Part shown: positions 39,623 to 62,111 of the stretch, one piece after another
How the letters are laid out: each line of letters starts with the position of its first letter
Position numbering within the stretch: position 1 is the first letter of the stretch
Virus record (IMG/VR): IMGVR_UViG_3300007747_000008
Span: 109,828-173,827 of that record
Direction: 5' to 3' (one strand)
DNA length: 64,000 nt
Source of the DNA: a virus
Taxonomy: Duplodnaviria > Heunggongvirae > Uroviricota > Caudoviricetes
Translations under genes and position numbers: made by a program
Notes under the pieces: generated by a model
What the model was told of the DNA's origin: nothing
Seen by the model: the letters and a program-made list of their open reading frames with translations, nothing else
Databases searched by the model: none

Positions 39623-39825
39623 AAAACACAGAAAACCTTTATACTGAAAAAACATACTGCAATAATTGTAATGTAGTATATCAGGTGCAGACAACTGTAT
39701 GTGAAAAATGTGGTTGTACTTTTAACTACAATCATTTTTGGGTTGATGATCGACACATAGAACTACAACGTTTCAGGGCTGCAAGATCAATGCACCAATA
39801 CAATTTAAAAATGGGAAACATATAA
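39619..39825 (+). CDS. Small zinc-ribbon protein
   Basis: CNNCN...CEKCGC. Confidence 0.4.
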   Translation: MKNTENLYTEKTYCNNCNVVYQVQTTVCEKCGCTFNYNHFWVDDRHIELQRFRAARSMHQYNLKMGNI

Positions 39826-40226
39826 TGAGCATTAGTGAAAAAATTAAAAGTATTGATTTTTTGAAAAATCGTAAAGTAATTGACCAGACTGATCATTCAG
39901 GTATTGGTATGATTGGTTTTAAACATAATGAAAAAGACGTGTATAGTTCAATCATTTTTTCTGAAAAAAGTACAAACGGTGTAGTTCCAGCTATAGTAAT
40001 GATTTCATCTTTGGGTGCCTTACTTAAGCTAGACACTGGTGAAAATCAAATTACTATTTCCATCTCATCTGCTGGTGAAAGGGAAGGATTTTTTGAAACC
40101 TTCCCTAGTTCATTAGATGAAGGTGAATTCTTTCAAAACTCGTTAATTCACGATTTCCGTCATATTACTTATGAGCACATTGTTGCCCTACGTGATGTAT
40201 TGAAATTGAATGATGCCCAAGACTAA
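39825..40226 (+). CDS. Member of the multi-copy E-x-FFQ-x-S C-terminal-motif family
   Basis: The C-terminus carries EGEFFQNSLIHDF... Confidence 0.5.
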   Translation: MSISEKIKSIDFLKNRKVIDQTDHSGIGMIGFKHNEKDVYSSIIFSEKSTNGVVPAIVMISSLGALLKLDTGENQITISISSAGEREGFFETFPSSLDEGEFFQNSLIHDFRHITYEHIVALRDVLKLNDAQD

Positions 40227-40674
40227 AAATATCAAGCAGCAGTTAAAATATATCATAAAACAGGGATACACCGACGATGGTTGTATTGATTTGTACAATA
40301 GGTTAAAATCATATACCGAATACTTCAATTATAACACATCGTCAGAAACAATATTCCATCTTCCAGATCGTTCAATGAATATGACAATATCATGGAATGG
40401 AACATCATCTAACATTACTGCATTCATTGGAAGAATTAATAAGGAATGTAGAATAATATCATTTGAATATGATAATACAATTGTTATTGGAAAGGCAAAT
40501 TCAAAAGAAAACTTAAAAATTTATAATTGTGATAGTTCACCAACATATGATGATTTACGAAATATAAACATAGATGAAGAAATCTATCAGTACTTAATCG
40601 TATTTCGTATATTGGTAACTCCGATGATTGATCATATTTTAAAACAACACATAACAAAGTTGGGACAAAACTGA
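40210..40674 (+). CDS. Hypothetical protein
   Basis: ORF. Confidence 0.45.
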   Translation: MMPKTKNIKQQLKYIIKQGYTDDGCIDLYNRLKSYTEYFNYNTSSETIFHLPDRSMNMTISWNGTSSNITAFIGRINKECRIISFEYDNTIVIGKANSKENLKIYNCDSSPTYDDLRNINIDEEIYQYLIVFRILVTPMIDHILKQHITKLGQN

Positions 40675-40690
40675 GTTTATGTGATATAAT
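40662..40690 (+). promoter_or_regulatory. GGGACA-N17-TGTGATATAAT promoter upstream of a tRNA
   Basis: GGGACA at 40662 and TATAAT at 40685-40690. The tRNA begins 9 nt later. Confidence 0.55.
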
Positions 40691-40698
40691 ATAATAAC

Positions 40699-40789
40699 GG
40701 TAGGTTGGCTGAGTCGGCCTATAGCATCTGCCTACTAAGCAGAAGATGGAGAAATCCGTCCGTGGGTTCGAATCCCACACCTACCTCCA
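40699..40789 (+). tRNA. Type II (long variable arm) tRNA, Ser-like, with an apparent anticodon ACT
   Basis: Acceptor GGTAGGT/ACCTACC, a 3-bp D-stem, anticodon stem TCTGC/GCAGA with loop CTACTAA, a long variable arm, T-arm GTGGG-TTCGAAT-CCCAC, and an encoded CCA. Confidence 0.6.
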
Positions 40790-40806
40790 ACCAAAAGGAT
40801 CTAATA

Positions 40807-42069
40807 ATGGGAAGTTTTAACGCATCATGTGCAGTAAGTAAGTGTAGCATTAATCCCGGCGATCGAGTAAAATTAATCCCTATTGTAAGTCGAACATCTA
40901 TTCATCCAGATTTTGACAGCACTATGCATTTGGGTTTTGGGTGCTATACATACGATTATTTTCAATTCTTGGGATATCCTATGGATGCAACATATGCAGA
41001 TTATGGAAATTTTGAGATTGTTGAGAATGATGTTTCCGAATACAATCTAAGTATTATCAAGAAAAATTACACACAATCCATTCCACCAGAAGATGAAGAC
41101 GTTTCCTCGTATGACCGTAATGGTTATAATACAACAGCTAATGATCTTAATTGGGAAGTTATTGGTAATATGATTCATTTCGGCTCACTATTTTTAGATA
41201 GCTCTAAAGATATGACTAAGCGTAAATTTTTGGGATATTTCCCAGTGCATGAATCAGTCTATAACTTATTCATGGAATGCACCCCTGCGATGTATTTTGA
41301 CGAATCATACACAAATGTTCCATTTGTGAAGTATCTAAAAAAACAAATGGAAAAATATATTGGTGTACCAGATGAATTTGAAGCTGATATTACCAAATAC
41401 ATGGACCTTTATTCCAGTAAAATTGGGACTGTTAACAAATCTGGTGTTGTTGTTACGCCCGAAGACATATATGATCGTGCAGTAGCTATGGCTGAATATC
41501 GCCAAGAAAGCAACGACGAACGAAAAGATTACTCATATTCCAATAGTTCTAACGTCAAAAAAATATGTAAATTCCGTGAATTGGAATTGAAAAAAGAAAT
41601 TGATGAAGAATTTCTTCGTAGTGTCGTTTCACTTGATGCTGAATTATCATTCTTGATTATGGGGTTGTCAGCCTACAATATTCCAATTCTACCACCAATG
41701 ACTGCTGGACAAGAGTATGATAAAACTGACCACGCCGCTTTTCTAATCCGAATGGGTCAGGAAATGATGAACTTGCAAAAAACTGATAATAAAGAAAATT
41801 ACGATGAAGATGAATTAGTACTTAAACCTGTAATTAAAAATTATTTTGAAGTTTCCATGTCAGGATTAGTTACTGGTGCAAAAAATGACTGGAAACCTGA
41901 ACGCGGTAAAGAAAATCTAGTATTGATTGAAAAGTTTATTGCTGAGTACCCAGAAGGTGTATACCTAACAATGGATGAATTACAAAAGAGTGGTTATATT
42001 TCTATTCTTTCTGGTGTTGAATCAACTATGCTTGATTTTCTTTTCATTAATGATACAGTTAAGGAATAA
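40807..42069 (+). CDS. Hypothetical protein (420 aa)
   Basis: ORF. The six-frame start at 40705 lies inside the tRNA, so the ATG at 40807 is used. Confidence 0.55.
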   Translation: MGSFNASCAVSKCSINPGDRVKLIPIVSRTSIHPDFDSTMHLGFGCYTYDYFQFLGYPMDATYADYGNFEIVENDVSEYNLSIIKKNYTQSIPPEDEDVSSYDRNGYNTTANDLNWEVIGNMIHFGSLFLDSSKDMTKRKFLGYFPVHESVYNLFMECTPAMYFDESYTNVPFVKYLKKQMEKYIGVPDEFEADITKYMDLYSSKIGTVNKSGVVVTPEDIYDRAVAMAEYRQESNDERKDYSYSNSSNVKKICKFRELELKKEIDEEFLRSVVSLDAELSFLIMGLSAYNIPILPPMTAGQEYDKTDHAAFLIRMGQEMMNLQKTDNKENYDEDELVLKPVIKNYFEVSMSGLVTGAKNDWKPERGKENLVLIEKFIAEYPEGVYLTMDELQKSGYISILSGVESTMLDFLFINDTVKE

Positions 42070-42071
42070 TT

Positions 42072-42437
42072 ATGACTGTAGCAGAAATGATAGCAGTACT
42101 CAACGGTATGCCCCAAGATTGGGAAGTAGTTATTCCAGTACAAACAACATTTGAATCTATTGGGTGTACACCTTCAAGTCCAATTTCATCAGTCGTTGCA
42201 GGATTTGATTGGGATAATGGCTATGTACACTTGAATAGCAATGATAATATTATTAGGTTCAGTGATGAGCAAATGGTCGAATTTAATCTTATGCTAAATA
42301 CTGCACGTAAAACTCGCAGAGCAGCATGGGATACCTTAAAGGCTCGTGGATTGACTTACGATGAAATGTTAAAAGAAGATACGGAGAAAAATGTTCACGC
42401 ATTATTTCGTGCAACTAAAAGGAAAAATGATGATTAA
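42072..42437 (+). CDS. Hypothetical protein
   Basis: ORF. Confidence 0.5.
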   Translation: MTVAEMIAVLNGMPQDWEVVIPVQTTFESIGCTPSSPISSVVAGFDWDNGYVHLNSNDNIIRFSDEQMVEFNLMLNTARKTRRAAWDTLKARGLTYDEMLKEDTEKNVHALFRATKRKNDD

Positions 42438-42975
42438 AGATATTCAACAACTAATTACACAAATTACTGATTTTCTATCTGACAAAGATGGTTTCGGTAC
42501 TGAAGTATCCGAGAACGGTTGTGTTGTAAAAGTGACAAACGCTGACAGTACTGAAATCCAGTACGATGGTTATGAGTTACTTTTGTACACTCTAAGTACT
42601 CGCAAGTTGGGTCATGATATTGATCTTAATATCCATGAAACAGAAAATGGTAAAGTATTTGCTATTAACACTGAAGCTTCATTGGAACTACGTGATTACA
42701 TGACACAGATCAATACTGATTTGGCTACTAAAGACCACGGTGATGATGTACTAAGTGTTGTGGTGTGTGATCAGACTAGTGAAAAGCCACATCCATATTG
42801 TGTTTTAACTTTATTCAAAAATGGTAATTGGTTGCGTCAGGATTTGACTATGGCTGAGATCTTATATGCTGCAACGCACGAATTGGTCATTGAGAAAGAA
42901 GAAAATGCATACGTGTACACAAAACTTCGTGTACTAGCTAAACAAGTGATTGACGAAATTCAAGAAATTAAATAA
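42427..42975 (+). CDS. Hypothetical protein
   Basis: ORF with an AAAGGAAAA Shine-Dalgarno before ATGATG. Confidence 0.5.
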   Translation: MMIKDIQQLITQITDFLSDKDGFGTEVSENGCVVKVTNADSTEIQYDGYELLLYTLSTRKLGHDIDLNIHETENGKVFAINTEASLELRDYMTQINTDLATKDHGDDVLSVVVCDQTSEKPHPYCVLTLFKNGNWLRQDLTMAEILYAATHELVIEKEENAYVYTKLRVLAKQVIDEIQEIK

Positions 42976-42980
42976 TTCTT

Positions 42981-43009
42981 GGGACAAATCACTGATTATG
43001 TGATATAAT
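42981..43009 (+). promoter_or_regulatory. GGGACA-N17-TGTGATATAAT promoter upstream of tRNA-Thr
   Basis: GGGACA at 42981 and TATAAT at 43004-43009. Confidence 0.55.
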
Positions 43010-43050
43010 ATAAGTATGACAGGACAAACATTTTTTATTCCTGTCATAAT

Positions 43051-43124
43051 GCTGACGTGGCTCAATTGGTACAGCACCTCACTTGTAATGAGGCATTTTG
43101 TGGGTTCAAGTCCTACCGTTAGCA
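43051..43124 (+). tRNA. tRNA-Thr (anticodon TGT)
   Basis: Acceptor GCTGACG/CGTTAGC, anticodon arm CCTCA-CTTGTAA-TGAGG, T-loop TTCAAGT. Confidence 0.8.
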
Positions 43125-43249
43125 CCGATTAGTTTTATCCCTTTGCTGTTTAAATTTCTCCATTTTCTTTAAACAGTGTTTTTCCTATAAATTGTTATTG
43201 ACTTTCGCCCGTACATGTTGTAAAATATGAACGGGCATTCTTTTGGAGA

Positions 43250-43441
43250 TTGAATATGTCAAACATCGTTAAAAAGTGGTTAGTTGGTTTTGTACTTGTA
43301 GTATACGTGTTATTCGTGTTATTAAACGCGGTTCCGGGAATGATATCTGCACCAGATACTATTCTAAACTTATTTGGTTTCGCTATTCTAGTGTTTAGCA
43401 TTCCATCAATCTATGTAATTATTAAAAGGGTATACAAATAA
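43250..43441 (+). CDS. Small membrane protein
   Basis: Two hydrophobic helices. Confidence 0.4.
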   Translation: MNMSNIVKKWLVGFVLVVYVLFVLLNAVPGMISAPDTILNLFGFAILVFSIPSIYVIIKRVYK

Positions 43442-43442
43442 A

Positions 43443-44282
43443 ATGATGAAGAAAATTCTACTAGCAGTTGGTATTGTACTTGGTTCTCTAGCACTATCAG
43501 GTTGTGACCGCGTTGAACCGGGCTATGTTGGTATTAAAGTTAACAAGCTAGGTGATGACAAGGGTGTTGGTGAAGTCGTCGGTGTAGGTCGTGTATGGAC
43601 TGGTATTAACACTGATTTGTATGTGTTCCCAATGTTCAAACAAATGAAGTCATATGACGAAGCATTTACATTCCAAATGCGTGATGGTACTACCATCGGT
43701 CATAAGATTGGTGTCTCATACAAAGTTGACCCAACTAAAGTAACTACCGTATTCCAGACCTACCGTAAGGGTGTTGATGATATCACTGATACTGATTTGC
43801 GTCAGAAAATTAGTGACTCACTAAACCGCCTTGCAAGTAAAATGAATACCGACGAGTTTATTGATGGTGGTAAATCCACACTACTTGATGAAGCACTACG
43901 TGATTTACAAAGTGAAATGAATCCAATTGGTATTCAAATTATTAGTCTATCATGGATGGGTAAACCAGAGTACCCAACCAGTGTAATTGAATCAATCAAT
44001 GCTAAAGTAACTGCTAATCAAAAAACACTACAACGTCTTCAAGAAGTTGAACAGCGTAAAGCAGAAGCAAACATGGCTCGTGAACAAGCAAACGGTGAAG
44101 CAGACGCTAAACTACGTCTAGCAGAAGCAGAAGCACAAAGTATTGTCAAGCGTGGTGAAGCACTACGTGCTAATCCTGAAGTACTACAGCTTGAAGCTAT
44201 CAACCGTTGGAATGGGGTACTACCACAGTACATGGCAAGTGGTTCACAAACACCACTAGTTACTATCCCTGCTGGTAAGTAA
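43443..44282 (+). CDS. SPFH/band-7 (prohibitin/HflK-like) domain lipoprotein
   Basis: Signal peptide with lipobox LSGC. SPFH-like core followed by an Ala/Glu-rich coiled-coil tail (AEAEAQ...). Confidence 0.65.
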   Translation: MMKKILLAVGIVLGSLALSGCDRVEPGYVGIKVNKLGDDKGVGEVVGVGRVWTGINTDLYVFPMFKQMKSYDEAFTFQMRDGTTIGHKIGVSYKVDPTKVTTVFQTYRKGVDDITDTDLRQKISDSLNRLASKMNTDEFIDGGKSTLLDEALRDLQSEMNPIGIQIISLSWMGKPEYPTSVIESINAKVTANQKTLQRLQEVEQRKAEANMAREQANGEADAKLRLAEAEAQSIVKRGEALRANPEVLQLEAINRWNGVLPQYMASGSQTPLVTIPAGK

Positions 44283-44297
44283 TATCCATAGATCTAA

Positions 44298-44326
44298 GCT
44301 CCCTCAGTCGAGGGGGCTTTTCTTTT
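44298..44326 (+). terminator. Rho-independent terminator
   Basis: GCTCCCTC-AGTC-GAGGGGGC followed by TTTTCTTTT. Confidence 0.55.
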
Positions 44327-44349
44327 AAGTTTAGTTTGAGGATATACAA

Positions 44350-44751
44350 ATGCTTAACTTTGAAATGTTTCTGAATGTATTGAAGACTAATCCTACTACA
44401 ATTGATAATTATTCCCCATCAGTTACTATATTTTCTGTTGGAATTAACACCTTTATTAAAATGTGGGATTCTGGTAAACTTGTAATAGAACTTCCAAATT
44501 CAGCAGATGTTCAGCGTTATACATTAACTTATGACCCGTGTATGGACTGGATGATTTACGATGAAATTAAAATGGTAGTCCATTACGATGGTTCTTGCTA
44601 TTCAAAACATAATAGGACATACTTTAAAAAACTTAGTATCAAAAAACCTGATTACTTATCAGAGAAATCATTATTGGAATTTACTACTTTATATGAGATT
44701 ATCGCTTTAGATCTCAAAATGGCAAACTATGGAAACGAAAACCAAATATAA
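44350..44751 (+). CDS. Hypothetical protein
   Basis: ORF. Confidence 0.45.
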   Translation: MLNFEMFLNVLKTNPTTIDNYSPSVTIFSVGINTFIKMWDSGKLVIELPNSADVQRYTLTYDPCMDWMIYDEIKMVVHYDGSCYSKHNRTYFKKLSIKKPDYLSEKSLLEFTTLYEIIALDLKMANYGNENQI

Positions 44752-45163
44752 AAAATACACAGAGCAGCTATACCAATATAGTTCAACTCTCATAGCCGAA
44801 GTTTCATGTACCAGAAAAACATTTAAATCAATATATGAAACCGGAAACAAAATAATTTATGAAGACGAACACCAAAGAACTGTAGAATTGAGTACTTGTG
44901 AAATGGTTCTTAAACATGATAATGTATCGATTTATTATAGAGACAATATAATTCAATTTTGTGCAAATAAAATATCGTATATACATGACGTGATCTATAT
45001 TCCAAATAATCAAGATTTTTCTTTTTTCTCAATCGGTTCTGAAGGTGAGTTGTTTCAATTAAGTACAATAATCGATATTAAACTAATCAAGTTTGAAGAT
45101 GTTGTTAAATTGAATAATATAAAAGAGTATTTTGAATATAGATTTTTAGAAAATAACACTTGA
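44729..45163 (+). CDS. Member of the E-x-FFQ-x-S family
   Basis: GSEGELFQLSTIIDIK. Confidence 0.45.
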   Translation: METKTKYKKYTEQLYQYSSTLIAEVSCTRKTFKSIYETGNKIIYEDEHQRTVELSTCEMVLKHDNVSIYYRDNIIQFCANKISYIHDVIYIPNNQDFSFFSIGSEGELFQLSTIIDIKLIKFEDVVKLNNIKEYFEYRFLENNT

Positions 45164-45214
45164 TTTTATTCATACGTTGTACTATAATGTAAAAAAACAC
45201 AAAGGAATTTTAAT

Positions 45215-45649
45215 ATGAGTGTAAAGAATGTAATTGCTCAATTTAGTAAAATAGACAAATCAGTTTGGAAATTATTTCGCAGTAAGACTTCAAGATCAAT
45301 TTGGTTTGACAGCGATACTCGCTGTAAAGTAAACATTGACTTCATCGAAGAATACTGTATTCGTTTTTACATGTTTCCAGAATTACAAGATGTAGAGGGT
45401 TATAACTATCGTATTTTCATGAGCGACGATTTAATTACCGTTTCTATATATACTGCAAATCCAACAGTGGACTCTACCAGTACTGATTATGACATTCCAT
45501 TATATAATGTACTTACTGAGGAATCATTCTTTCAAGAAAGCTTGATTTCAAATTTTGGTGATATTGATTTTGAAGATTTGAAAGTATTGAGTTCCTTGCG
45601 TGAACAATTTATTGAATTATACAGTGAGAACATTATTAATGCCAATTAG
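45215..45649 (+). CDS. Member of the E-x-FFQ-x-S family
   Basis: EESFFQESLISNFGDIDFEDLKVL. Confidence 0.5.
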   Translation: MSVKNVIAQFSKIDKSVWKLFRSKTSRSIWFDSDTRCKVNIDFIEEYCIRFYMFPELQDVEGYNYRIFMSDDLITVSIYTANPTVDSTSTDYDIPLYNVLTEESFFQESLISNFGDIDFEDLKVLSSLREQFIELYSENIINAN

Positions 45650-46169
45650 AAGAATTCCAGATACTGCATCAGAATTATTAAAGAATATTTCTTTTGAAAC
45701 TATGTCAAGAACTACAAATAGTTCTGGTATCTATTATTATCGTGATCCAATTTATGATAGTTTGCGGATCATTTTTAATACTAAAGCTAAATCAATCACA
45801 TTCAAGCGTGAGTTGAGCATCACTGGTGGTAAACGCAATGAAGCATTGATTTACGATTTTGATAATATGACATTAACAAAAACATTCCAAGAACCATCAT
45901 TTCACCTTGACTCGATGAAGTTTATGGAGTATCCTTTTTGTTCAGAAGAAGAACAGCATTTTATGGAAAGTACAATACAAAATAATTACTTCCCTTCGTA
46001 CCAAGACTTTGTTAAAATGGAAACTCTTAAAACCCAATTTATGAAGGATGTTTACTCGTGGATATCAGAAACAAGACAGAAGAAGAAGGAACGCAGACTC
46101 GCACAGTTGGACAGCTTTCGCCAGAAAGGACTTCATTGGACATCAAAGGCAAAGCGTATATCCTCCTAA
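45639..46169 (+). CDS. Hypothetical protein
   Basis: ORF. Confidence 0.45.
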   Translation: MPIRRIPDTASELLKNISFETMSRTTNSSGIYYYRDPIYDSLRIIFNTKAKSITFKRELSITGGKRNEALIYDFDNMTLTKTFQEPSFHLDSMKFMEYPFCSEEEQHFMESTIQNNYFPSYQDFVKMETLKTQFMKDVYSWISETRQKKKERRLAQLDSFRQKGLHWTSKAKRISS

Positions 46170-46498
46170 GAAAGGATTTAAATATGCCTGAAGGTAAGCT
46201 AGCTGTTCAGGTAGGCCACGCGATGGATCAGGTATGGATGTACAAACAGAGTTGTACTGAACAGCAAGAAGAAGAATTTAATTTATGGTATAACTCGGGA
46301 CGTCGGAAAATCCTCTTGCGGTTGAATGATGAATCTGATATGATTAAGATCAAGTCCAAACTACAAGCTGAAGGTGCTGTTGTATTTGATATTTTTGATA
46401 ATGGTATCAATTTCTTTGACGGCTTAACTTATACTGGTCTGGTGGTATTTCCATCAGTAACTGAAATCAAAGCATTAAAACGTGTGAGGGTATATTAA
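46136..46498 (+). CDS. PTH2-family peptidyl-tRNA hydrolase-like protein
   Basis: AYILLRKDLNMPEGKLAVQVGHA matches the PTH2 signature (..VVR.DL.M.KGK.AAQ.SHA). Start placed at the TTG at 46136 preceded by AAAGGA. An alternative GTG start at 46058 overlaps the upstream gene by about 110 nt. Confidence 0.55.
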   Translation: MDIKGKAYILLRKDLNMPEGKLAVQVGHAMDQVWMYKQSCTEQQEEEFNLWYNSGRRKILLRLNDESDMIKIKSKLQAEGAVVFDIFDNGINFFDGLTYTGLVVFPSVTEIKALKRVRVY

Positions 46499-46875
46499 TG
46501 AGACTTGAACGCTGTGGTGGATTCTTTTTATGGGTATTAATTATTGTATGGATTTTGGGCAATACTGCACATTATATGATTACTGTTAAAGAACCCAATA
46601 AAGAATTAATCAAACAAGCAGAACGTGAAAATCGTTCATTTGAACCACAACATAATAATAGTGGTATGTATGCTGATGTACTAAGTAAGATCAAAAGTTG
46701 TGATCTTAATGTTGACGAAGCTACTCGTGATAAATTCTATAGCTGCCCGACTGGTGAAAAAATTACACAAATTAACTGGACTCGTGAACAAGGTAAACGC
46801 AAAGGCGTAGTAACTCGCTATTACGATGCTAAAGGTGACTTACGTTTGATCTATGGTCATCCAGATGACAAATAG
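46498..46875 (+). CDS. Membrane-anchored protein
   Basis: N-terminal hydrophobic helix. Confidence 0.45.
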   Translation: MRLERCGGFFLWVLIIVWILGNTAHYMITVKEPNKELIKQAERENRSFEPQHNNSGMYADVLSKIKSCDLNVDEATRDKFYSCPTGEKITQINWTREQGKRKGVVTRYYDAKGDLRLIYGHPDDK

Positions 46876-46884
46876 GATACAATA

Positions 46885-47163
46885 ATGTTTAAAATAATTT
46901 ACAGCAATAGTAAAAATATTGCAGGGGTTATCCCCTTACCAGCCCAAGTTATGGTTAAAACTACCCAAGGGTATAAAGAACTAGATTTGTACCAACGTAC
47001 CAGTACTGGTCATGTGTACGCCAAGAATGGTTCATACTACATCTCTCTTATGAGAACCGGGCTTACCGGTAATTCAAAAATTACATGGGTAGAGCTTGAC
47101 GGAATTGAAGAAATATACGATACTAGCTATCTTAAATATGAGTTCAAAAACGCAGAGGAATAA
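46885..47163 (+). CDS. Hypothetical small protein
   Basis: ORF. Confidence 0.4.
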   Translation: MFKIIYSNSKNIAGVIPLPAQVMVKTTQGYKELDLYQRTSTGHVYAKNGSYYISLMRTGLTGNSKITWVELDGIEEIYDTSYLKYEFKNAEE

Positions 47164-47166
47164 ATT

Positions 47167-47418
47167 TTGGCAAACGTTGTTCGTGGTCGTAAAATGCAAA
47201 ATGTTGATGAAATCCGCCACCTGAAGGGTTATCGGTTTATTTTCCAACAATTGTGTGCTGGTGTTCATATGACTGTAGTAACTGAAACTCTTCAGGAACC
47301 TGAAATAGTATTCGGTACTTATGCTAAAGTATTCAATATTTACATGCGTCGTGGACAACTTGATCTAATAACTATTGCCGAAGCTCCTGATGATCTAGAG
47401 AACTATTTCTTCTTATGA
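47167..47418 (+). CDS. Hypothetical small protein
   Basis: ORF. Confidence 0.4.
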   Translation: MANVVRGRKMQNVDEIRHLKGYRFIFQQLCAGVHMTVVTETLQEPEIVFGTYAKVFNIYMRRGQLDLITIAEAPDDLENYFFL

Positions 47419-47543
47419 AAATTACAAAAAGTACTAAATCATATTTTAGTGATTTGATATTAGAAGATTTACAGTTGATTAGACAGATTTTTAACAAGTA
47501 CCATCGCAAGGTGAGGTATGGAAAATGAAAGAACCCCTAGATC

Positions 47544-47849
47544 GTGATGATGATTATCTTGATGAACGCTATGGAGATGAAGATGCGTGATATTTCTAAG
47601 ATTTTGAGCAGTATCTGTGAGAACCTACCTGATGGTGATTTGACTATCACTGATGCAGAGTACTATGCATGGAAAGAGCGTTTTGACGATCTCAAAGAAC
47701 ATGAAAAGGTGTTTGAGATTGTAGGATCACTATCCCAGTACTTGACCAGTGGTTGCAGAGCATCAGCATCAATTTTTGCATCAGCACTTACATGTACTGC
47801 ACGTTGGTGCAACGAAAAAGATAATGAAGACTTTCTAAACAATATGTAG
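47544..47849 (+). CDS. Hypothetical small protein
   Basis: ORF. Confidence 0.4.
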   Translation: MMMIILMNAMEMKMRDISKILSSICENLPDGDLTITDAEYYAWKERFDDLKEHEKVFEIVGSLSQYLTSGCRASASIFASALTCTARWCNEKDNEDFLNNM

Positions 47850-47856
47850 GAAAACT

Positions 47857-48315
47857 ATGAAAATACTAACACTACTAGAAGTTGTTCAAAAATCAAACGA
47901 ATATTTGGATTCAAATCCTATTGGAAAACGCGGAACAAAAGTTGTTGAAGTAATAGATAGGATCATCAATCCTTCTGGTAATGGGTATAATAATTTACTA
48001 GAAACATTCATTTATGACCGGTTTGTTCAAATAAAAATATATGATAATGATAATCTTATTGAATATCAATTGATAATGCGACCGTGGGATAATGCTTTCC
48101 AACTTAACACTTGGTTTGATGGAAAAAAACCTGAGTGCAAGTATGCACATGAGTCAGTTGGAATGAAATTTACAATTGACGAATCTGAGTTCTTCATGGA
48201 AAGTACTGTAACCGATATGAAAGATATTACTCTATCTGACATTAGGTCAGTAAAAGCACTTATGGATCGTTTTTATAAACATTTTAATGTAACCCCCGTG
48301 GATTGTGAGGTATAG
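47857..48315 (+). CDS. Member of the E-x-FFQ-x-S family (divergent)
   Basis: ESEFFMESTVTDMKDITLSDIRSV. Confidence 0.45.
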   Translation: MKILTLLEVVQKSNEYLDSNPIGKRGTKVVEVIDRIINPSGNGYNNLLETFIYDRFVQIKIYDNDNLIEYQLIMRPWDNAFQLNTWFDGKKPECKYAHESVGMKFTIDESEFFMESTVTDMKDITLSDIRSVKALMDRFYKHFNVTPVDCEV

Positions 48316-48712
48316 TTTTATGGAACCTTCTGAGTGGTTTAAGAAAGCAATGGAACATATTGACAAAATGGATCCACGCGAACTTCATAAGGGTATCTTT
48401 GGATACTACCCTGAAGAATATGAAGAATATATTAATAACAAAAAGTATGAATCGGAAATCCAATACTTTATTGATATTATGAATACGCGTTCCTGTTCGG
48501 AAATTGAATTATATTGTGATGATTCTATAAAAAATCCAAGTAAATTCTTTCTTTCTTACGTACGTGAACATGGTAAAGAAGGAACCGACCCATCATTTTG
48601 GAATGGTTGGGGTGCTGATTACTTAGATTTACCTGAATATAATTTTCGGTACTTATGGATAAACGGACAAGGCACTGTACACTATTTTCAACATATTGGA
48701 GTAACATCATGA
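48305..48712 (+). CDS. Hypothetical protein
   Basis: ORF. Confidence 0.45.
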   Translation: MRYSFMEPSEWFKKAMEHIDKMDPRELHKGIFGYYPEEYEEYINNKKYESEIQYFIDIMNTRSCSEIELYCDDSIKNPSKFFLSYVREHGKEGTDPSFWNGWGADYLDLPEYNFRYLWINGQGTVHYFQHIGVTS

Positions 48713-49071
48713 AAAAACATGAACAACATATCCATGATTACGTTGAGCATAAGATGAGAAAACTTTTGAATGGAAGAACAATTCACGAAATTAAAAGTGA
48801 AAGTGTAGCTATTGAAAAACGCAGATCTGATGCTTTTTTTGCTACACAGCCTAATGAGGGTGAGCGTGTATACTTCAGAAGTATTAATGCCAGTACTGGT
48901 AAAGTCTTTACTGGATACGGAACTGTTACACGTGTGCGGTTAAAAGAGGCAACAATTCAATACGCATTGTATGAAATTGAATCTGATAGTAATGGTACAT
49001 TTGAAGCTTATATGAATCACCCAGATGAAAACAAACAAGGAGAGTTCATTCGTCATGTCAACGCAAAATAG
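48709..49071 (+). CDS. Hypothetical protein
   Basis: ORF with an ATGA overlap. Confidence 0.45.
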   Translation: MKKHEQHIHDYVEHKMRKLLNGRTIHEIKSESVAIEKRRSDAFFATQPNEGERVYFRSINASTGKVFTGYGTVTRVRLKEATIQYALYEIESDSNGTFEAYMNHPDENKQGEFIRHVNAK

Positions 49072-49229
49072 ATTCTTCGTTGGGATCAACACATTAACAA
49101 ACGATATTATTCCCGATACAATGTTTAAGCATTCATCTGATACGATAGATGCAATGAAAAATCTATATGGTGATAGTTGGGATACCACAAAGACTTATTT
49201 GTCTATAGCAGAATGTGAGGTAGTATTGA

Positions 49230-49562
49230 ATGACGAAAGTAAAAATTAAAGGTACTTTAACTGATGTTCGGGTAGTTGATGTTGAATTATTCCCATCTGA
49301 TTTGGTTAGAAATGCACTTCCACATATGACAATTGTGGATATAGAAACAGTATTAAAAAACTTACTAGAAGCAAAATTCAGAGAAAATGATCCTAGCATT
49401 CCAAAAAATGCCACAATTGATTGGCACTGGCAACGTTGGGAGAAATATTCATTCACTGATTATCATAAAAACGATGACATTTATGACACCGTGCGTGATT
49501 TCAATGAAGAAGAAAAACAGTTCGTGATTTCAATGAATGCACTATTTCAAGTCTTCAAATAA
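49230..49562 (+). CDS. Hypothetical protein
   Basis: ORF. Confidence 0.45.
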   Translation: MTKVKIKGTLTDVRVVDVELFPSDLVRNALPHMTIVDIETVLKNLLEAKFRENDPSIPKNATIDWHWQRWEKYSFTDYHKNDDIYDTVRDFNEEEKQFVISMNALFQVFK

Positions 49563-49563
49563 A

Positions 49564-49587
49564 AACGCCACTTGATGGCGTTTATTT
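49564..49587 (+). terminator. Rho-independent terminator
   Basis: AACGCCA-CTTG-ATGGCGTT followed by TATTT. Confidence 0.5.
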
Positions 49588-49616
49588 GGGACAAAGTACT
49601 GAAAATATGATATAAT
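49588..49616 (+). promoter_or_regulatory. GGGACA-N17-TATGATATAAT promoter upstream of tRNA-Arg
   Basis: GGGACA at 49588 and TATAAT at 49611-49616. Confidence 0.5.
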
Positions 49617-49623
49617 AAAATAT

Positions 49624-49700
<77 letters not shown>

Positions 49701-49714
49701 ATTAAGGAAATGTT

Positions 49715-50188
49715 ATGAGTAACACAACTCCATTAAAACAGATTGCACAATTTTACGAGTACAAAGATCAGATTGTTGCTGAAATGGTGCAGCAAGCTCG
49801 AGTACAGTCCCAAAATAAATTAAGAGCATATACTAAAATTAGACCAAGAAAACCCAACTTATTATATTTCGGTTATAATGAAGGTCATAATAGATCGTAC
49901 TCAATTGAGTTGGAATACAAAAACATATTAATGTTATTTTATCACCAAACGAGTAAAGATGATACTAACGAAGTTGAATACTGCTTCGCTAGTGAGTGGA
50001 ATGAAGATGAAATAATGGCAGCGACCGATTCAGTACTAATATCCAAAGAACAAGATGAAGCTAGTTTATTCCAATTATCAGTGGTATCAGATATTGGGTT
50101 TTTAACATCAGAAATTCACAATGCGTTAATTGACTTCATTACCGTCATTGATAATGAAGTCACTAATAAAATTGAAAATATATCATGA
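49715..50188 (+). CDS. Member of the E-x-FFQ-x-S family
   Basis: EASLFQLSVVSDIGFLTSEIHNAL. Confidence 0.5.
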   Translation: MSNTTPLKQIAQFYEYKDQIVAEMVQQARVQSQNKLRAYTKIRPRKPNLLYFGYNEGHNRSYSIELEYKNILMLFYHQTSKDDTNEVEYCFASEWNEDEIMAATDSVLISKEQDEASLFQLSVVSDIGFLTSEIHNALIDFITVIDNEVTNKIENIS

Positions 50189-50807
50189 GACATGCAAATT
50201 GATCCAACGAAATAGAGTACTCAAGAATATAAAAACATTGGGTCGAGAGTTGGCTAATGAACATTATGGAAATGAAGCTGCATTTAATGCATTTGCTTAT
50301 TCTGGAATAACATATTTTAGTGAATGTGCATTCTTTGACGCAAAGAGTTTATTTACAATTAAACTAGACAACACAACTTATATTAATTTAAATAAAATTA
50401 TATTTGTAGATCCAGAAGACGGAATGGAGTTAGATAGTTATAATTATCGAAACATTTCTGAAGAAGAATATTTCCAACTAAGTACTATATACGATTTTGG
50501 TGATATGGAATATAGAGATATTAAATTTATATCTAACATTATAGATGAATTAACCCTGTACTCAAAAGAATCACTAAAACTTATTCAGCAAGCTGCCAAT
50601 GAACTTTCAAAACAAATGTCTAGGCAATTTGCTGAAGATATGACGAAAGAAATTGATCGCGGGATTATAACGCATCTGATTAATATGGCACCCACTGTAT
50701 CTAAACCTTCCAAGAAAACACGAACCCCTCCTTACAAACCACATACAGCAACAATGCCATATGGTTATGGGGTGGAAAGTTGGAAAATTAAAAAACATAA
50801 AAAATAA
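50154..50807 (+). CDS. Member of the E-x-FFQ-x-S family (longer, 218 aa)
   Basis: EEEYFQLSTIYDFGDMEYRDIKF. The start is uncertain and could be 50130. Confidence 0.5.
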   Translation: MKSLIKLKIYHETCKLIQRNRVLKNIKTLGRELANEHYGNEAAFNAFAYSGITYFSECAFFDAKSLFTIKLDNTTYINLNKIIFVDPEDGMELDSYNYRNISEEEYFQLSTIYDFGDMEYRDIKFISNIIDELTLYSKESLKLIQQAANELSKQMSRQFAEDMTKEIDRGIITHLINMAPTVSKPSKKTRTPPYKPHTATMPYGYGVESWKIKKHKK

Positions 50808-50827
50808 TATACTAATGGAACTATAAA

Positions 50828-51220
50828 ATGAAATATCAAATTGAAATTCACTATCAAACTGGCAATACGTTTGGTTCACATGATGAAGAACGAATTATCG
50901 ATGATGTTGTGTTTGAAGATCTTGAAAGTGCAAAAGAAGCTTTACAAATTATAAAGAAACATCATGAAATGACTCAAGCATCATCTGGATATCTTTCTCA
51001 GGAAGAACGTGCAATTAGACTACAGGAAATTTCAATGCAGCCGTGGGCAGTGAAATCCAAGTTCGGTGGTGATTACGATTATTCATTTAAGGTTCGTACA
51101 TCCAAAGATAGCCAGCAGTGGGTAGAAGTTTATGCATTCTGGAAAGGATATTTTGAACGTTTACATGAAGCAAAAATTATTGATGCGGACAGTGATGAAT
51201 TATCTGTAAGTTTCCGTTGA
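50828..51220 (+). CDS. Hypothetical protein
   Basis: ORF. Confidence 0.45.
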   Translation: MKYQIEIHYQTGNTFGSHDEERIIDDVVFEDLESAKEALQIIKKHHEMTQASSGYLSQEERAIRLQEISMQPWAVKSKFGGDYDYSFKVRTSKDSQQWVEVYAFWKGYFERLHEAKIIDADSDELSVSFR

Positions 51221-51245
51221 TCTGAACAAAATTCTATTGTATAAT

Positions 51246-51273
51246 AGCCTCCTTAACCGGGGGCTTTTTTTAT
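51246..51273 (+). terminator. Rho-independent terminator
   Basis: AGCCTCC-TTAACC-GGGGGCT followed by a T7 run. Confidence 0.6.
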
Positions 51274-51282
51274 TGGAAAATT

Positions 51283-51702
51283 ATGAATACTATTTTAACA
51301 TATCTTAGAACACTAAATCATCCTAACATTGTAAATCGTGCAATCGTTAATAAAACTAAATTAGTATCCCATCAGTCATATAGAAATAATACATTAATGT
51401 ATGTATTGTCTGATGGCTGCATATCTTGTCTAATGACGTTTAAAGATGGAACCAGAAGCTATGGATTTGATCTGTATGAACATACATATGATTTCACTCG
51501 GGGTGAAGCACACAATCCATATAACTTGTATCGTAAAAACCCCCCACTAAAATCAGTTGTGGTTATCTTTGATTTGGAGTATACTAATATTGAAGAAACG
51601 TTATTTCAACAATCACTAGTACACGATCTTGGTCAGTTCGGTATTAAAGAAGCCGAAATGCTAGTACGTTTACGCAATACCTATTTTGGAGAAAAAAGTT
51701 GA
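51283..51702 (+). CDS. Member of the E-x-FFQ-x-S family
   Basis: EETLFQQSLVHDLGQFGIKEAEML. Confidence 0.5.
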   Translation: MNTILTYLRTLNHPNIVNRAIVNKTKLVSHQSYRNNTLMYVLSDGCISCLMTFKDGTRSYGFDLYEHTYDFTRGEAHNPYNLYRKNPPLKSVVVIFDLEYTNIEETLFQQSLVHDLGQFGIKEAEMLVRLRNTYFGEKS

Positions 51703-51807
51703 ACGTGAGAAAAAATAGTGCTACAATATCACCAGAAACAAAAGCACGGTTACTTGAAATGTTAAACCCCAAGAGTAACGTACATTTCCTTAAGACAAAG
51801 GTATAAA

Positions 51808-52152
51808 ATGAAACAGTACGCAATTGTCCATAAATCTAATCTCATGCCAATCGCTTTTTACTGCACTGCTGAAGTTGCCATGCAGCGTATGATGTTCATC
51901 ACTGATAGTAACGCCTTTGGTGTATTCGAAGTTGATGTTGAAATTCATTCAGTACTGACAAATGAAAACAGCCCAGTGAAACATCGTATTGGTCGCATCT
52001 GCACACTGAACAACTGTTTGTTATCCGTACATTTAGAAATGAGTACTGCATACCAATATCATGATGCAATTAAATCTGGTCTTTTCCAAATTTGTGATGT
52101 AGAATATTTCTTCGGTAAAGAAATTAAACGTCCTAAAAAAGAAGAGGAATAA
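51808..52152 (+). CDS. Hypothetical protein
   Basis: ORF. Confidence 0.45.
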   Translation: MKQYAIVHKSNLMPIAFYCTAEVAMQRMMFITDSNAFGVFEVDVEIHSVLTNENSPVKHRIGRICTLNNCLLSVHLEMSTAYQYHDAIKSGLFQICDVEYFFGKEIKRPKKEEE

Positions 52153-58832: not shown

Positions 58833-58833
58833 T

Positions 58834-59100: not shown

Positions 59101-59124
59101 AACTTTCTCACACATGGAGATAAC

Positions 59125-59348: not shown

Positions 59349-59368
59349 CAAAAAAATCACAAATTATC

Positions 59369-59397
59369 GGGACAGAACGAAAAACTTGTGATATAAT
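59369..59397 (+). promoter_or_regulatory. GGGACA-N17-TGTGATATAAT promoter
   Basis: GGGACA at 59369 and TATAAT at 59392-59397. Confidence 0.5.
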
Positions 59398-59480
59398 AAA
59401 CACATCGACGGATGTTAAAACGTAAACACGGTTCTCACAGATGAGAACATTCTATAAAGTAAAATAAGGGTTTTACCAAT

Positions 59481-59699
59481 ATGCTTAAAAATACTAACAC
59501 TGAAAACACCATCGCTGATATCTCTGACTTTGATCGCACTGTGAACTACATTAAGTTCCAGCTTTCACAAGCAGAGGAAATGCTAGACCAGCATTCAGGG
59601 GCTGATGTGAAGAAGATTACTTTTGTACATCTTCTTGAGTGGAAGAATGAGCTAAAAAGCGAGCTACACGATCTAACTCGCAAAAATAAACGCAAGTAA
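59481..59699 (+). CDS. Hypothetical small protein
   Basis: ORF. Confidence 0.4.
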   Translation: MLKNTNTENTIADISDFDRTVNYIKFQLSQAEEMLDQHSGADVKKITFVHLLEWKNELKSELHDLTRKNKRK

Positions 59700-59706
59700 T
59701 ATCTTA

Positions 59707-59735
59707 GCCGTCACTTCGGTGACGGCATTTTAATT
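59707..59735 (+). terminator. Rho-independent terminator with a UUCG tetraloop
   Basis: GCCGTCAC-TTCG-GTGACGGC followed by ATTTTAATT. Confidence 0.6.
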
Positions 59736-59754
59736 AAATGCTAAAGGATACTAT

Positions 59755-59997
59755 ATGATTACTGAAGAAGTACTTAAAAGTACATACCAGCGTATTCAAG
59801 ACTTAAAGAAATTCCGTTCCGAAACATGGGACAAATGGCATGTACTTAACGACAAAGACCAGCGTACCCAACCCGAAGCTAAAGAACATAAACGTTTATT
59901 TTCGGTTATTGATCGCCTGAACTATGAAATTCGTGCTAACGAAATCTATTTCAGAGAACTGTCGAAAGACTTTATCAAACAAATTGTGGGAGGTTAA
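59755..59997 (+). CDS. Hypothetical small protein
   Basis: ORF. Confidence 0.4.
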   Translation: MITEEVLKSTYQRIQDLKKFRSETWDKWHVLNDKDQRTQPEAKEHKRLFSVIDRLNYEIRANEIYFRELSKDFIKQIVGG

Positions 59998-60010
59998 TGT
60001 GGAATTATTC

Positions 60011-60472
60011 ATGATTGGTTGTTTAGTACTGATTGGTCTATTCGGTTTGATGTTGATTGTTTCAACCGTATGCATGGGAAGTAATGTATTCATTTCCCTA
60101 CAGGTACTAATGGGTTCATTGAAGTATAGTAAAGAAGTTGATGATAAGATCCAGCTTGAACTTGGTAAGATTGATGCTGGTATGTGTGATGTGTCTGTTG
60201 ACGAACATACAATCGGTTTATATGTTAAAACTGATAAAGATGTCGATTTCAGATATCGTACACCTTATATGGAAATTTGGGTTGAAAATAAGTTTTATTC
60301 CTACGGTAACATTTACCGCATGAATGGGCAAAGTTCTTATGACTTTAAGTCAAAACGCCCTTCAATTGCAGTGATTAAACAACTCTTAGAACTACAACGC
60401 AGTAAAGGTGAAAGTACTAAGAAAATCAAAAAGAAAGATAAAAAACAAGAAAAAACTGTAATTTTGGAATAA
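60011..60472 (+). CDS. Membrane-anchored protein
   Basis: N-terminal TM helix. The start is placed at the internal ATG of the six-frame ORF. Confidence 0.45.
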   Translation: MIGCLVLIGLFGLMLIVSTVCMGSNVFISLQVLMGSLKYSKEVDDKIQLELGKIDAGMCDVSVDEHTIGLYVKTDKDVDFRYRTPYMEIWVENKFYSYGNIYRMNGQSSYDFKSKRPSIAVIKQLLELQRSKGESTKKIKKKDKKQEKTVILE

Positions 60473-60516
60473 CAAATGGGGCATATTATTGCCCAATTTT
60501 TTTAAGTGAGAAATAC

Positions 60517-61020
60517 ATGACTAATCAAGAATATATGGATGTTTTAAAAAACCATCACACCGATGATGTTAGAATAAAAACTCGTTATAATGAAAATAGT
60601 GAGATGGATATTATATACTCTGTTTCTACTAATGCTTTTTATAATAAAAATTTACATGAAGTTCCATATGTAATGAAAGCTCATTCAATTATTGAAATTC
60701 GTGATGGTAAGTTATACATGCCCGTTCCTAATATAATGGATAGAATTATTGAAGGTAAATTAACGGCAAGTGAATATTGTAATATAATAAAAGGCAATGC
60801 AGCATTAATTAAAATTGATGGTAATATGTTACCAAATCAATTCTCAGCAGATTTATTATATATTCCATACTACGATGATGAAGCTAAATCTTTTCAATGC
60901 GAGACGATGGGTGAGATTATTTTGTATAAATCACATAAGCAATACGTGGATGCCATCATGAAGACTGCCCATGAACAGTTCAATCAGGCTGCTGAAAAAA
61001 ATCTTGGGACAAACATTTAG
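60517..61020 (+). CDS. Hypothetical protein
   Basis: ORF. Confidence 0.45.
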   Translation: MTNQEYMDVLKNHHTDDVRIKTRYNENSEMDIIYSVSTNAFYNKNLHEVPYVMKAHSIIEIRDGKLYMPVPNIMDRIIEGKLTASEYCNIIKGNAALIKIDGNMLPNQFSADLLYIPYYDDEAKSFQCETMGEIILYKSHKQYVDAIMKTAHEQFNQAAEKNLGTNI

Positions 61021-61034
61021 AAATGTGATATAAT
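61006..61034 (+). promoter_or_regulatory. GGGACA-N17-TGTGATATAAT promoter
   Basis: GGGACA at 61006 and TATAAT at 61029-61034. Confidence 0.55.
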
Positions 61035-61045
61035 AAATCCATAAA

Positions 61046-61354
61046 ATGGAGAACTACAATATGGAATATTTAAACGAAGATAATTTTAAAGACCTTGATA
61101 CATTTATCACTTCGTGTGAAGATAAACAAGCAGCGATTGGTGATGTTAATGTGGTAATAGCAGCAATTGATGCGGCTGAGGTAATCCCAATTAACCATCG
61201 TGTGGTTTTAGCTGGAAACTTAAAATTTGACGATGAAGAAACGATTGAGTACTATGAAGCAGTCATTGCTCAGGGGGTAGAACTTAGCGATCATGAGACA
61301 TTTATGTACACTAAGCTACTCAATGAACAGGGGATTGTGAGTCCAAAAGAATAA
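61046..61354 (+). CDS. Hypothetical acidic protein
   Basis: ORF. Confidence 0.45.
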   Translation: MENYNMEYLNEDNFKDLDTFITSCEDKQAAIGDVNVVIAAIDAAEVIPINHRVVLAGNLKFDDEETIEYYEAVIAQGVELSDHETFMYTKLLNEQGIVSPKE

Positions 61355-61362
61355 AAATTCTT

Positions 61363-61391
61363 GGGACAAATCATTGAAAATGTGATATAAT
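61363..61391 (+). promoter_or_regulatory. GGGACA-N17-TGTGATATAAT promoter upstream of the leader and tRNA-Ser
   Basis: GGGACA at 61363 and TATAAT at 61386-61391. Confidence 0.55.
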
Positions 61392-61397
61392 ATAATT

Positions 61398-61583
61398 ACC
61401 GAAAGGTAATATAAAAACGCTGGCGAAGTGGATTCATAACAGCAAACATATAAAATCTTATGAATTTTATATCTTAGGATATATAACGCAGTGACACGCT
61501 GCGGATAATTTAAAAGTGTATGCATAGGTGAAAGATGTGTTGTACGCGGCCTATGTAGCATACATAATGAATCCAGTATTAGG
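61398..61583 (+). ncRNA. Structured leader or small RNA of about 190 nt between the promoter and tRNA-Ser
   Basis: No ORF. Hairpins TTACC-GAAA-GGTAA, ATAAAAT..ATTTTAT and CGCAG-TGACACG-CTGCG. Confidence 0.3.
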
Positions 61584-61676
61584 TAGATTGGCAGAGTCTG
61601 GCTTATTGCACCAATCTTGAAAATTGGCAGCCGTTAATAGCGGCTCGTGAGTTCAAATCTCACATCTACCTCCAAA
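61584..61676 (+). tRNA. tRNA-Ser (anticodon TGA), type II
   Basis: Acceptor GGTAGAT/ATCTACC, anticodon arm CCAAT-CTTGAAA-ATTGG, a long variable arm, T-loop TTCAAAT, and an encoded CCA. Confidence 0.8.
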
Positions 61677-61730
61677 AGAATCTTTCAGCAACTAACCTCA
61701 TCTGATTATATGAAAAAAAGGATTCTTGTT

Positions 61731-62111
61731 ATGGAGTTCGAAAGTTTTGGTAAAAAGTTAAAAAATGAAATTGATGCATTGCTAGCCGGGGAACAATCCA
61801 AGGCAACATGGTCTGATCACGGAGTTCGCCCTGCCATTATATGCAAATGGAAGATCAATGATAACATTATCGACGGTATAACTTATGCTTTTACTATATG
61901 TATTCCAATTGAACAGAAAATAATAACTTTAATATCAGAAAAATATGGCTCATATGAAGAAGAAGAGGATAAGTACACAATAGTTGACGTACCATATCCA
62001 GAAAGCGAAGAACACTACTTTCAATTAAGTACAGTTGAAGATTTGGGTTTTGATTATGAATTTTACAAATACATAATAGATGCTTTTGGTAAATTAAAAT
62101 TAAGGAAATAG
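61731..62111 (+). CDS. Member of the E-x-FFQ-x-S family
   Basis: EEHYFQLSTVEDLGFDYEFYKYI. The six-frame start at 61647 lies inside the tRNA, so the ATG with an AAGGA Shine-Dalgarno is used. Confidence 0.5.
   Translation: MEFESFGKKLKNEIDALLAGEQSKATWSDHGVRPAIICKWKINDNIIDGITYAFTICIPIEQKIITLISEKYGSYEEEEDKYTIVDVPYPESEEHYFQLSTVEDLGFDYEFYKYIIDAFGKLKLRK

Follow-up and report, generated by a model that had tools for sequence, protein, structure and literature searches.

Does a short motif that recurs near the C-termini of small phage proteins mark a true protein family, and if so, what is the motif for? The question is raised by a 64,000-nt stretch of a tailed-phage genome (IMG/VR record IMGVR_UViG_3300007747_000008, positions 109,828 to 173,827; the whole stretch is called the window here). 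An earlier interpretation made from the letters without database searches, the sequence-only reading, had noticed eight or more small open reading frames (ORFs) between 39825 and 62111 whose products share the motif E-x-(F/Y/L)FQ-x-S-(L/T)-(I/V)-x-D, and took them for a dispersed and rapidly diversifying set of paralogues. The feature is real, well supported and larger than was first thought.

All eight ORFs originally listed are present on the plus strand at the coordinates reported for them and encode the quoted peptides. When the motif was run as a regular expression, [FYLH]F[QM].S[LTVI][IV], over the six-frame translation, it found nine real plus-strand ORFs and two spurious sites, both on the minus strand and interrupted by stop codons. 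The ninth ORF, 45639-46169 (peptide EEEQHFMESTIQ), was absent from the first list, so that the count of 'eight or more' holds but the full number is nine. An all-versus-all BLASTP comparison in a set of 229 window ORFs gave statistical support to the similarity, the best member pairs having expectation values (E) of 1.6e-5, 5.9e-5 and 0.004. With leave-one-out hidden Markov models (HMMs), each held-out member ranked ninth, directly behind the eight training members and ahead of all ~220 other ORFs, at E values from 5e-12 to 9e-3 versus 0.01-0.45 for the best non-member. An enriched profile scored the nine members at E 7e-25 to 4e-14 and the next window ORF at 2e-3, and hhalign returned probabilities of 96-99% for the nine and 20% for the next ORF.

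Because the members had originally been chosen by eye for the motif, evidence free of that choice was sought outside the window, and the family is recovered there too. A profile built from the window alone matched nine ORFs in the syntenic region of Salmonella phage Munch (E 1.6e-12 to 1.5e-5), and an exhaustive HMMER search of 1.84 billion cluster representatives retrieved 96 proteins at E<=1e-3, all of them 81-233 aa long. A loosened form of the motif expression matches 93 of 99 proteins retrieved from databases, and nearly all database proteins found carry an extended signature, [ST]EEE[FY]FQxS[TL][VI]xDFGD[LI][TS][FY]ED. In many of them the match to the family profile spans positions 1-145. 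The notion that the motif simply recurs by chance in unrelated AT-rich ORFs draws on the two non-coding minus-strand sites that the bare expression also matches, but it is refuted by the leave-one-out HMMs, by hhalign, by the orthologues in other phages and by the 96 database clusters with the same extended signature, and we give it practically no credence. The nine window members are homologous over their whole length, with a window count of exactly nine on sequence criteria, and the proposal of a true paralogue family dispersed, partly in tandem, through a jumbo phage accessory region is borne out by the leave-one-out HMMs and hhalign (Table 1). The tandem neighbours are 44729/45215/45639 and 49715/50154. 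Additional degenerate members were considered at 34672-35193, 60517-61020, 37154-37453, 38753-39109, 40210-40674, 44350-44751 and 63366-63743; none was significant (best scores HMM E 2e-3 and hhalign 20%).

Table 1. Family members and promoter-like sites in the window. E values and hhalign probabilities refer to the family profiles described in the text; the roles given for promoter-like sites are putative.
Feature	Position	Strand	Length (aa)	Isoelectric point (pI)	Motif	Leave-one-out E	hhalign (%)	Munch orthologue (identity)	Remarks
Member 1	39825-40226	+	133	5.1	DEGEFFQNSLIHDF	2.5e-10	98.1	CPT_Munch_377 (37.5%)	FFQ core from nt 40128
Member 2	44729-45163	+	144	5.4	SEGELFQLSTIIDI	1.7e-9	96.4	CPT_Munch_387 (63%)	opens three-gene tandem array
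Member 3	45215-45649	+	144	4.3	TEESFFQESLISNFGDIDFED	4.8e-12	98.8		modelled by AlphaFold2
Member 4	45639-46169	+	176 (from ATG 45639)	9.3	SEEEQHFMESTIQ	0.004-0.009 (weak)	99.0		basic C-terminal tail; enriched profile E 1e-21; phrog_22160 E 1.4e-25
Member 5	47857-48315	+	152	4.9	DESEFFMESTVTDM	6e-8	98.7	CPT_Munch_395 (39%)	phrog_30111 E 1.4e-27
Member 6	49715-50188	+	157	4.7	DEASLFQLSVVSDIGF	2e-4	97.7	CPT_Munch_401 (31%)	start 15 nt 3' of tRNA-Arg; enriched profile E 1.4e-20
Member 7	50154-50807	+	217	8.6	SEEEYFQLSTIYDFGDMEYRD	7e-10	97.7	CPT_Munch_403	motif followed by ~90-aa C-terminal extension with basic tail
Member 8	51283-51702	+	139	7.8	IEETLFQQSLVHDLGQFG	2.9e-4	97.4	CPT_Munch_405 (37%)	enriched profile E 2e-16
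Member 9	61731-62111	+	126	4.7	SEEHYFQLSTVEDLGFDYE	1.1e-6	97.6		57 nt 3' of tRNA-Ser(TGA); phrog_34619 E 7e-11
Promoter-like sites, all starts	4455, 6986, 16670, 36247, 40662, 42981, 49588, 55511, 59369, 61006, 61363	+
Promoter-like site	36247-36275	+							nearest such site upstream of gene run with member 1
Promoter-like site	42981-43009	+							upstream of tRNA-Thr; nearest such site upstream of members 2-5
Promoter-like site	49588-49616	+							directly upstream of tRNA-Arg and members 6-7
Promoter-like site	61363-61391	+							upstream of tRNA-Ser(TGA) and member 9

The gene model of member 4 is matched in metagenome locus L002, where a 176-aa gene is called at the same position, and the ATG of member 7 at 50154 is supported by a homologue of 217 aa (P0008). 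Members 4 and 7 both have C-terminal tails rich in lysine and arginine, and the tail of member 4 (ending ...KRISS) recurs in the database homologues P0048 and P0077. These tails hint at a subfamily with an added basic extension, possibly one that binds nucleic acid or membranes.

Which phages carry the family? In the phage collection, Munch (350 kb) alone gives an extended nucleotide match to the window, at 79% identity over 11% of positions 39000-52000. The gene order of the window is colinear with that of Munch and with ORF158-229 of phage RaK2. This match and this colinearity place the window phage in the RaK2/Munch group of jumbo myoviruses. A tblastn search with one family member found matches in RaK2-like jumbo phages of Klebsiella, Salmonella, Escherichia, Erwinia, Serratia, Yersinia, Pectobacterium and Xanthomonas. 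There were two exceptions: an 86-kb Klebsiella phage record, with the same span, identity and E value as the RaK2 match, and a weak match (E 4) in a 114-kb faecal phage record. Searched as a strict degenerate DNA pattern, TEEE[FY]FQxST occurs at 11 IMG/VR sites, each on a contig of 346-366 kb. It also occurs on AT-rich metagenome contigs that hold family arrays. Among 185,579 species-representative genomes the pattern gave four matches and no true member, three of the sites lacking a family ORF and the fourth being a chance GC-rich ORF. The apparent bacterial homologue, in a Vulgatibacter metagenome-assembled genome (L017), was rejected as a chance product of pattern selection, the ORF being GC-rich and of low complexity (E 0.0075).

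Copy number within this lineage is high. RaK2 has at least 20 copies, with 13 at 162-183 kb (13 in 40 kb), three at 200-224 kb and four in another locus; phage CBB has six members within 30 kb; and AT-rich metagenome contigs hold 8-10 family ORFs per 10-13 kb (up to 10 in 13 kb). A protein identical to member 3 (P0004) is found in metagenomes from JGI, Logan and ENA assemblies (longest listed contig 174 kb), the one place retrieved being a 5.4-kb ENA metagenome contig. The arrays on contigs L035 (OEQX01000020.1), L030 and L021 are much denser than that of the window, and some of their members, longer (~160-190 aa) and with weak scores, may represent further diverged subfamilies. The family is a lineage-specific expansion found only in the RaK2-like jumbo myoviruses, whose genomes are ~350 kb; in the window its proteins are ~125-220 aa long.

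The family proteins in RaK2, K64-1, Munch, GAP32, CBB, Serratia phage BF and Yersinia phage fHe-Yen9 are recorded as hypothetical proteins, and in PHROGs the family is scattered over many groups without an assigned function (phrog_23322, 24941, 22160, 30111, 23719, 34619, 36582, 24321, 13866, 27549, 30746 and others), which window members match at E values down to 1e-27. These unnamed PHROGs and hypothetical proteins are therefore the same proteins as the window family, with template modelling (TM) scores of up to 0.8 in BFVD. Neither Pfam, NCBIfam nor PHROGs supplies a functional label: a Pfam scan of the nine members gave only sub-threshold matches to unrelated families (E>=0.16) and none to MAM33, an NCBIfam search with the family gave nothing, a search of all PDB sequences with the family profile gave nothing at E<=10, and a Pfam scan of the longer database members for fused domains gave sub-threshold noise only.

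Paralogue expansion in jumbo phages is already known. About 10% of RaK2 proteins are paralogues (PMC3622015) and Bacillus phage G has ~35 copies of a zinc-ribbon protein (PMC7824862). Such expansions likewise consist of many diverged copies, partly in tandem, in accessory regions of one phage lineage; the protein fold and family differ, however, and no DNA-binding or other known domain was found in the window family. The literature searched holds no description of the present family as one superfamily, of its signature, fold or size, or of any MAM33-like phage protein.

The comparison with Munch also indicates the age of the expansion. Munch has a positional orthologue for eight of the nine window members, so the expansion predates the split between the two phages; the ninth, 61731-62111, lies beyond the Munch stretch compared. 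Identity between family orthologues is 26-63%, with a median of 37%, and 33 neighbouring genes have a median of 57% (one-sided Mann-Whitney p=0.0014). In comparisons of family orthologues, conservation is usually higher in the 27-residue motif region than elsewhere. The claim of rapid diversification therefore needs to be divided: orthologues do diverge faster than neighbouring genes, but the expansion itself is old and is not a recent burst of duplication.

What, then, is the conserved element? The sequence-only reading had placed the motif 20-60 aa from the C-terminus, followed by a short amphipathic helix, and had seen in it a constant interaction module joined to variable N-terminal specificity domains. 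In seven members the distance from the start of the motif to the C-terminus is indeed 31-41 aa, but 45639-46169 has 70 aa and 50154-50807 has 112 aa. AlphaFold2, run with a 95-sequence family alignment, modelled member 3 as a single compact domain (predicted local distance difference test (pLDDT) 93.8, predicted TM score 0.87) consisting of a helix at residues 3-12, seven β-strands with short connections and two further helices, at 102-111 and at 119-143, the latter long rather than short. For the most divergent member, 39825-40226, the same α-β7-α-α order was obtained with lower confidence (pLDDT 72). The signature is predicted to span the first of the two C-terminal helices, the following turn and the beginning of the last helix, and pLDDT in the motif helix of member 3 is 96-98. 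Since the helix and turn lie within one predicted domain, the motif would belong to the structural core and not to a separate interaction module.

The pattern of conservation can be read in the same terms. Column statistics show E102, F106, Q107, S109 and D113 to be near-invariant, and positions 104, 108 and 112 to be variable. T/S101 together with the next residues E102, E103 and E104 can be read as a helix N-capping box, and [TS]118-x-E-D as a second; D113-F-G-D is the turn after the motif helix; and F105, F106, S109, T/L110 and V/I111 would make up a hydrophobic stripe expected to pack on the sheet. The strands alternate conserved hydrophobic with variable polar positions, so that one face of the sheet would be covered by the helices and the other exposed and variable. 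It is quite unlikely, on this evidence, that a constant C-terminal module docks all paralogues on one common partner with unrelated, variable N-termini providing specificity. Conservation is indeed concentrated in ~25 residues near the C-terminus, and a purely structural role would not strictly demand the degree of conservation seen at the polar residues E102, Q107, S109 and D113. However, the motif helix is confidently placed inside one compact domain and reads as capping boxes and a buried stripe, and the N-termini are themselves homologous, as judged by full-length profile matches, the same seven strands in the most divergent member and the hydrophobic alternation.

Fold comparison offers a clue of limited strength. 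A search of BFVD returned only uncharacterised proteins of RaK2 and of GAP32, Yersinia, Serratia and Erwinia jumbo phages (TM 0.7-0.8), and Foldseek against solved structures found nothing at E<=0.001. The p32/MAM33 fold nevertheless recurs in both structure match lists and occupies the top Foldseek ranks (1yqf, E 0.019, probability 0.72; then 1p32, 3qv0, 6szw and 3jv1), and in the models it is the closest known architecture, with what appears to be the same order of structural elements. Superposition of p32 on the family model is poor (TM 0.30-0.35, E>=0.019), and there is no sequence signal, so membership in the p32 family is not established. The p32/gC1qR/C1QBP/MAM33 proteins (Pfam MAM33; PDB 1p32, 3qv0, 1yqf, 3jv1) have no detectable sequence or profile similarity to the phage family. 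They are also single-copy, mitochondrial and eukaryotic and form a trimeric ring, whereas the phage proteins occur only in phages, at 9 to 20 or more copies per genome, and are known from single-chain models. The acidity of p32 is matched in part, six of the nine window members having pI values of 4.3-5.4 and the family a median pI of 4.8.

The same match lists bear on the idea that the proteins are small-molecule binders or enzymes, with a helix-grip or START-type pocket, a site formed by E102, Q107, S109 and D113, and paralogues that differ in ligand, for instance in the sequestration of signalling nucleotides. The near-invariant polar residues do cluster on one helix, and START, CoxG and StARkin structures are among the weak Foldseek matches (5ys0, 2ns9, 3cnw, 5z8o; E 0.24-0.4). 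These matches are weaker than those to p32, though, and Pfam, PHROGs and NCBIfam contain no sequence match to an enzyme or sponge family. In addition, helix-grip proteins have the order β-α-α-β6-α, which differs from the α-β7-α-α order of the family. We consider such an activity rather improbable.

The helical character of the motif bears equally on a resemblance to a protease site. The tobacco etch virus (TEV) protease cleaves ENLYFQ|S, more generally E-x-x-Y-x-Q|G/S, in an accessible, extended peptide. Diversifying internal proteins are known from phage T4, and by that precedent the family could be packaged internally or ejected, E-x-x-[FY]-F-Q-x-S serving for proteolytic processing or capsid targeting. 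The likeness is superficial: a TEV-type cleavage site was rejected, as all members have an extra residue between Q and S and the stretch lies, probably buried, in a confidently predicted helix within the fold. A targeting signal would also have to sit near the C-terminus, in contrast to the N-terminal capsid-targeting signal of T4 internal proteins, which the window family lacks, its conserved element being near the C-terminus and inside the fold. T4 internal proteins and other small diversifying accessory or anti-defence proteins do share with the family their small size, their location in variable regions and a divergence faster than that of core genes. Mass spectrometry of RaK2 virions detected 54 proteins, all encoded in two other gene clusters (PMC3622015). 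The annotation of RaK2 ORF184-228 is hypothetical throughout, with none labelled structural, and family members are not among the detected RaK2 virion proteins. The structural model and the RaK2 proteomics together thus disfavour both the docking module and packaging, and the latter we regard as very improbable.

Our preferred reading, which we put forward tentatively and at rather less than an even chance, is that the proteins are non-virion, intracellular binders that present a variable sheet face on a conserved core to various targets, in the service of host takeover or counter-defence. The signature would act as the structural spine of the domain, two helix-capping boxes and a hydrophobic stripe packing on the sheet, and the opposite sheet face and the loops, polar, exposed and highly variable, would recognise the targets. 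The proteins would be produced in the infected cell and would not enter the virion. Each paralogue may bind a different host or phage macromolecule, and its target is probably a basic or nucleic-acid-binding protein, by analogy with the acidic, multi-ligand p32/MAM33 proteins, which appear to share the order of structural elements. The role in host takeover or anti-defence that had been suggested from the sequence is still plausible. In CBB, the family members lie in a tRNA-rich region that its authors suspect to be early and involved in host takeover (PMC5259590).

Several points weigh against this proposal. The non-virion status is taken from proteomics of RaK2, not of the window phage; three of the nine window members are not acidic; buried and exposed residues were assigned from helical periodicity and strand alternation, not measured on coordinates; and the near-invariant polar residues E102, Q107, S109 and D113 could mark a ligand or catalytic site.

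The genomic setting gives rise to a further alternative. The window is AT-rich (GC ~0.32-0.38) and nearly all its long ORFs are on the plus strand. It starts with genes for a ribonucleotide reductase, a Dda/PIF1-type helicase, a topoisomerase II subunit and a TelA-like protein; next comes an extended run of small ORFs, with four tRNA genes, an ADP-ribosylglycohydrolase, an SPFH/Band-7 protein and a PTH2 peptidyl-tRNA hydrolase among them. A phage-specific promoter-like element, GGGACA-N14-TGnTATAAT (29 nt; an extended -10 with an unusual -35), occurs at 11 sites in the window, all on the plus strand, where 0.08 would be expected by chance. It lies directly upstream of three of the tRNA genes (Ser 40699, Thr 43051 and Arg 49624), and a fourth site is ~190 nt upstream of tRNA-Ser 61582. 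For CBB and GAP32 a different, divergent -35 (TGAAACG) has been reported. Terminator-like hairpins are found at 44296-44319, between the promoter-like site at 42981-43009 and members 2-5, and at 51246-51265, where the hairpin follows the unit of tRNA-Arg and members 6-7.

Could the family act on translation or RNA, as p32/MAM33-like chaperones that bind ribosomal proteins, tRNA-processing factors or RNA? Such a role would explain the presence of family genes among phage tRNA genes and the PTH2 gene: family and tRNA genes are interleaved in the window, in RaK2 and in CBB, members 6 and 9 directly follow a tRNA downstream of the shared promoter-like site, and the PTH2 gene follows member 4. Proteins of the p32 family act in mitoribosome biogenesis and translation (PMC5630164, PMC8924301), and p32-like mitoribosome chains (7pkq, 9hny) are among the structural matches. 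Against this, small unrelated ORFs crowd the whole region, so that adjacency may be meaningless; many of the copies in RaK2 and in the metagenome arrays are not beside tRNAs; the existence of 20 or more divergent copies is better explained by many targets than by a single housekeeping role; and the link to p32 is itself weak. We judge a translational role unlikely on balance. A bolder possibility is that RaK2-like phages carry the first expansion in the viral or prokaryotic world of true p32/MAM33-fold proteins, in which the helix pair would be an oligomerisation interface and the 10-20 or more paralogues would form mixed acidic rings that bind or mimic nucleic acid and so capture host translation, RNA or defence proteins. 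Mixed rings of this kind would account for the presumed co-transcription of family genes with phage tRNAs; we think them a long shot.

Whichever of these roles applies, RaK2-group phages spend a noticeable share of their genes on one family, which accounts for at least 20 genes in RaK2 and for nine in the 64-kb window. Recognition that these genes form one superfamily, whose signature is sharp and whose fold model is confident, provides a simple annotation route for hundreds of orphan genes and points to the face of the protein that is likely to carry specificity. It also makes a portion of jumbo-phage dark matter tractable, as a dozen homologous small proteins can be screened for partners, toxicity and counter-defence. 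If the similarity to p32 reflects common ancestry or mechanism, a eukaryotic mitochondrial fold would be extended to phages.

Some observations on neighbouring genes may be of use for annotation. The SPFH/Band-7 gene at 43443-44282 (Pfam E 1.3e-27) has a lipoprotein-like N-terminus and an 80%-identical Munch orthologue, CPT_Munch_385 (locus L001, 8248-9087), whose label 'peptidyl-tRNA hydrolase' looks like a mis-annotation; the real PTH2 is encoded at 46058/46184-46498 of the window (Munch 390). The ADP-ribosylglycohydrolase gene at 37425-38414 (Pfam E 5.6e-70) has a Munch counterpart in CPT_Munch_372, and the TelA-like protein at 29991-31127 (E 7.7e-44) has one in RaK2 ORF172, for which similarity to a toxic anion resistance protein is noted. 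The adjacent large genes 12414-14006 (530 aa) and 14006-16618 (870 aa) are mutual paralogues (BLASTP E 7e-12 over ~270 aa), and neither matches Pfam.

Three minus-strand ORFs, 42934-43125, 61316-61561 and 36176-36451, have in common a stretch of 24 aa with 58% identity; they overlap repeated promoter/tRNA-leader DNA and so are most likely a non-coding repeat read in the wrong frame and not genes. For the tRNA-Ser at 40699-40789 ARAGORN assigns the anticodon ACT, and a serine tRNA with an unmodified A34 would be unusual. The ORF listed at 40705 begins inside this tRNA, and the true gene therefore probably starts at an ATG near 40810.

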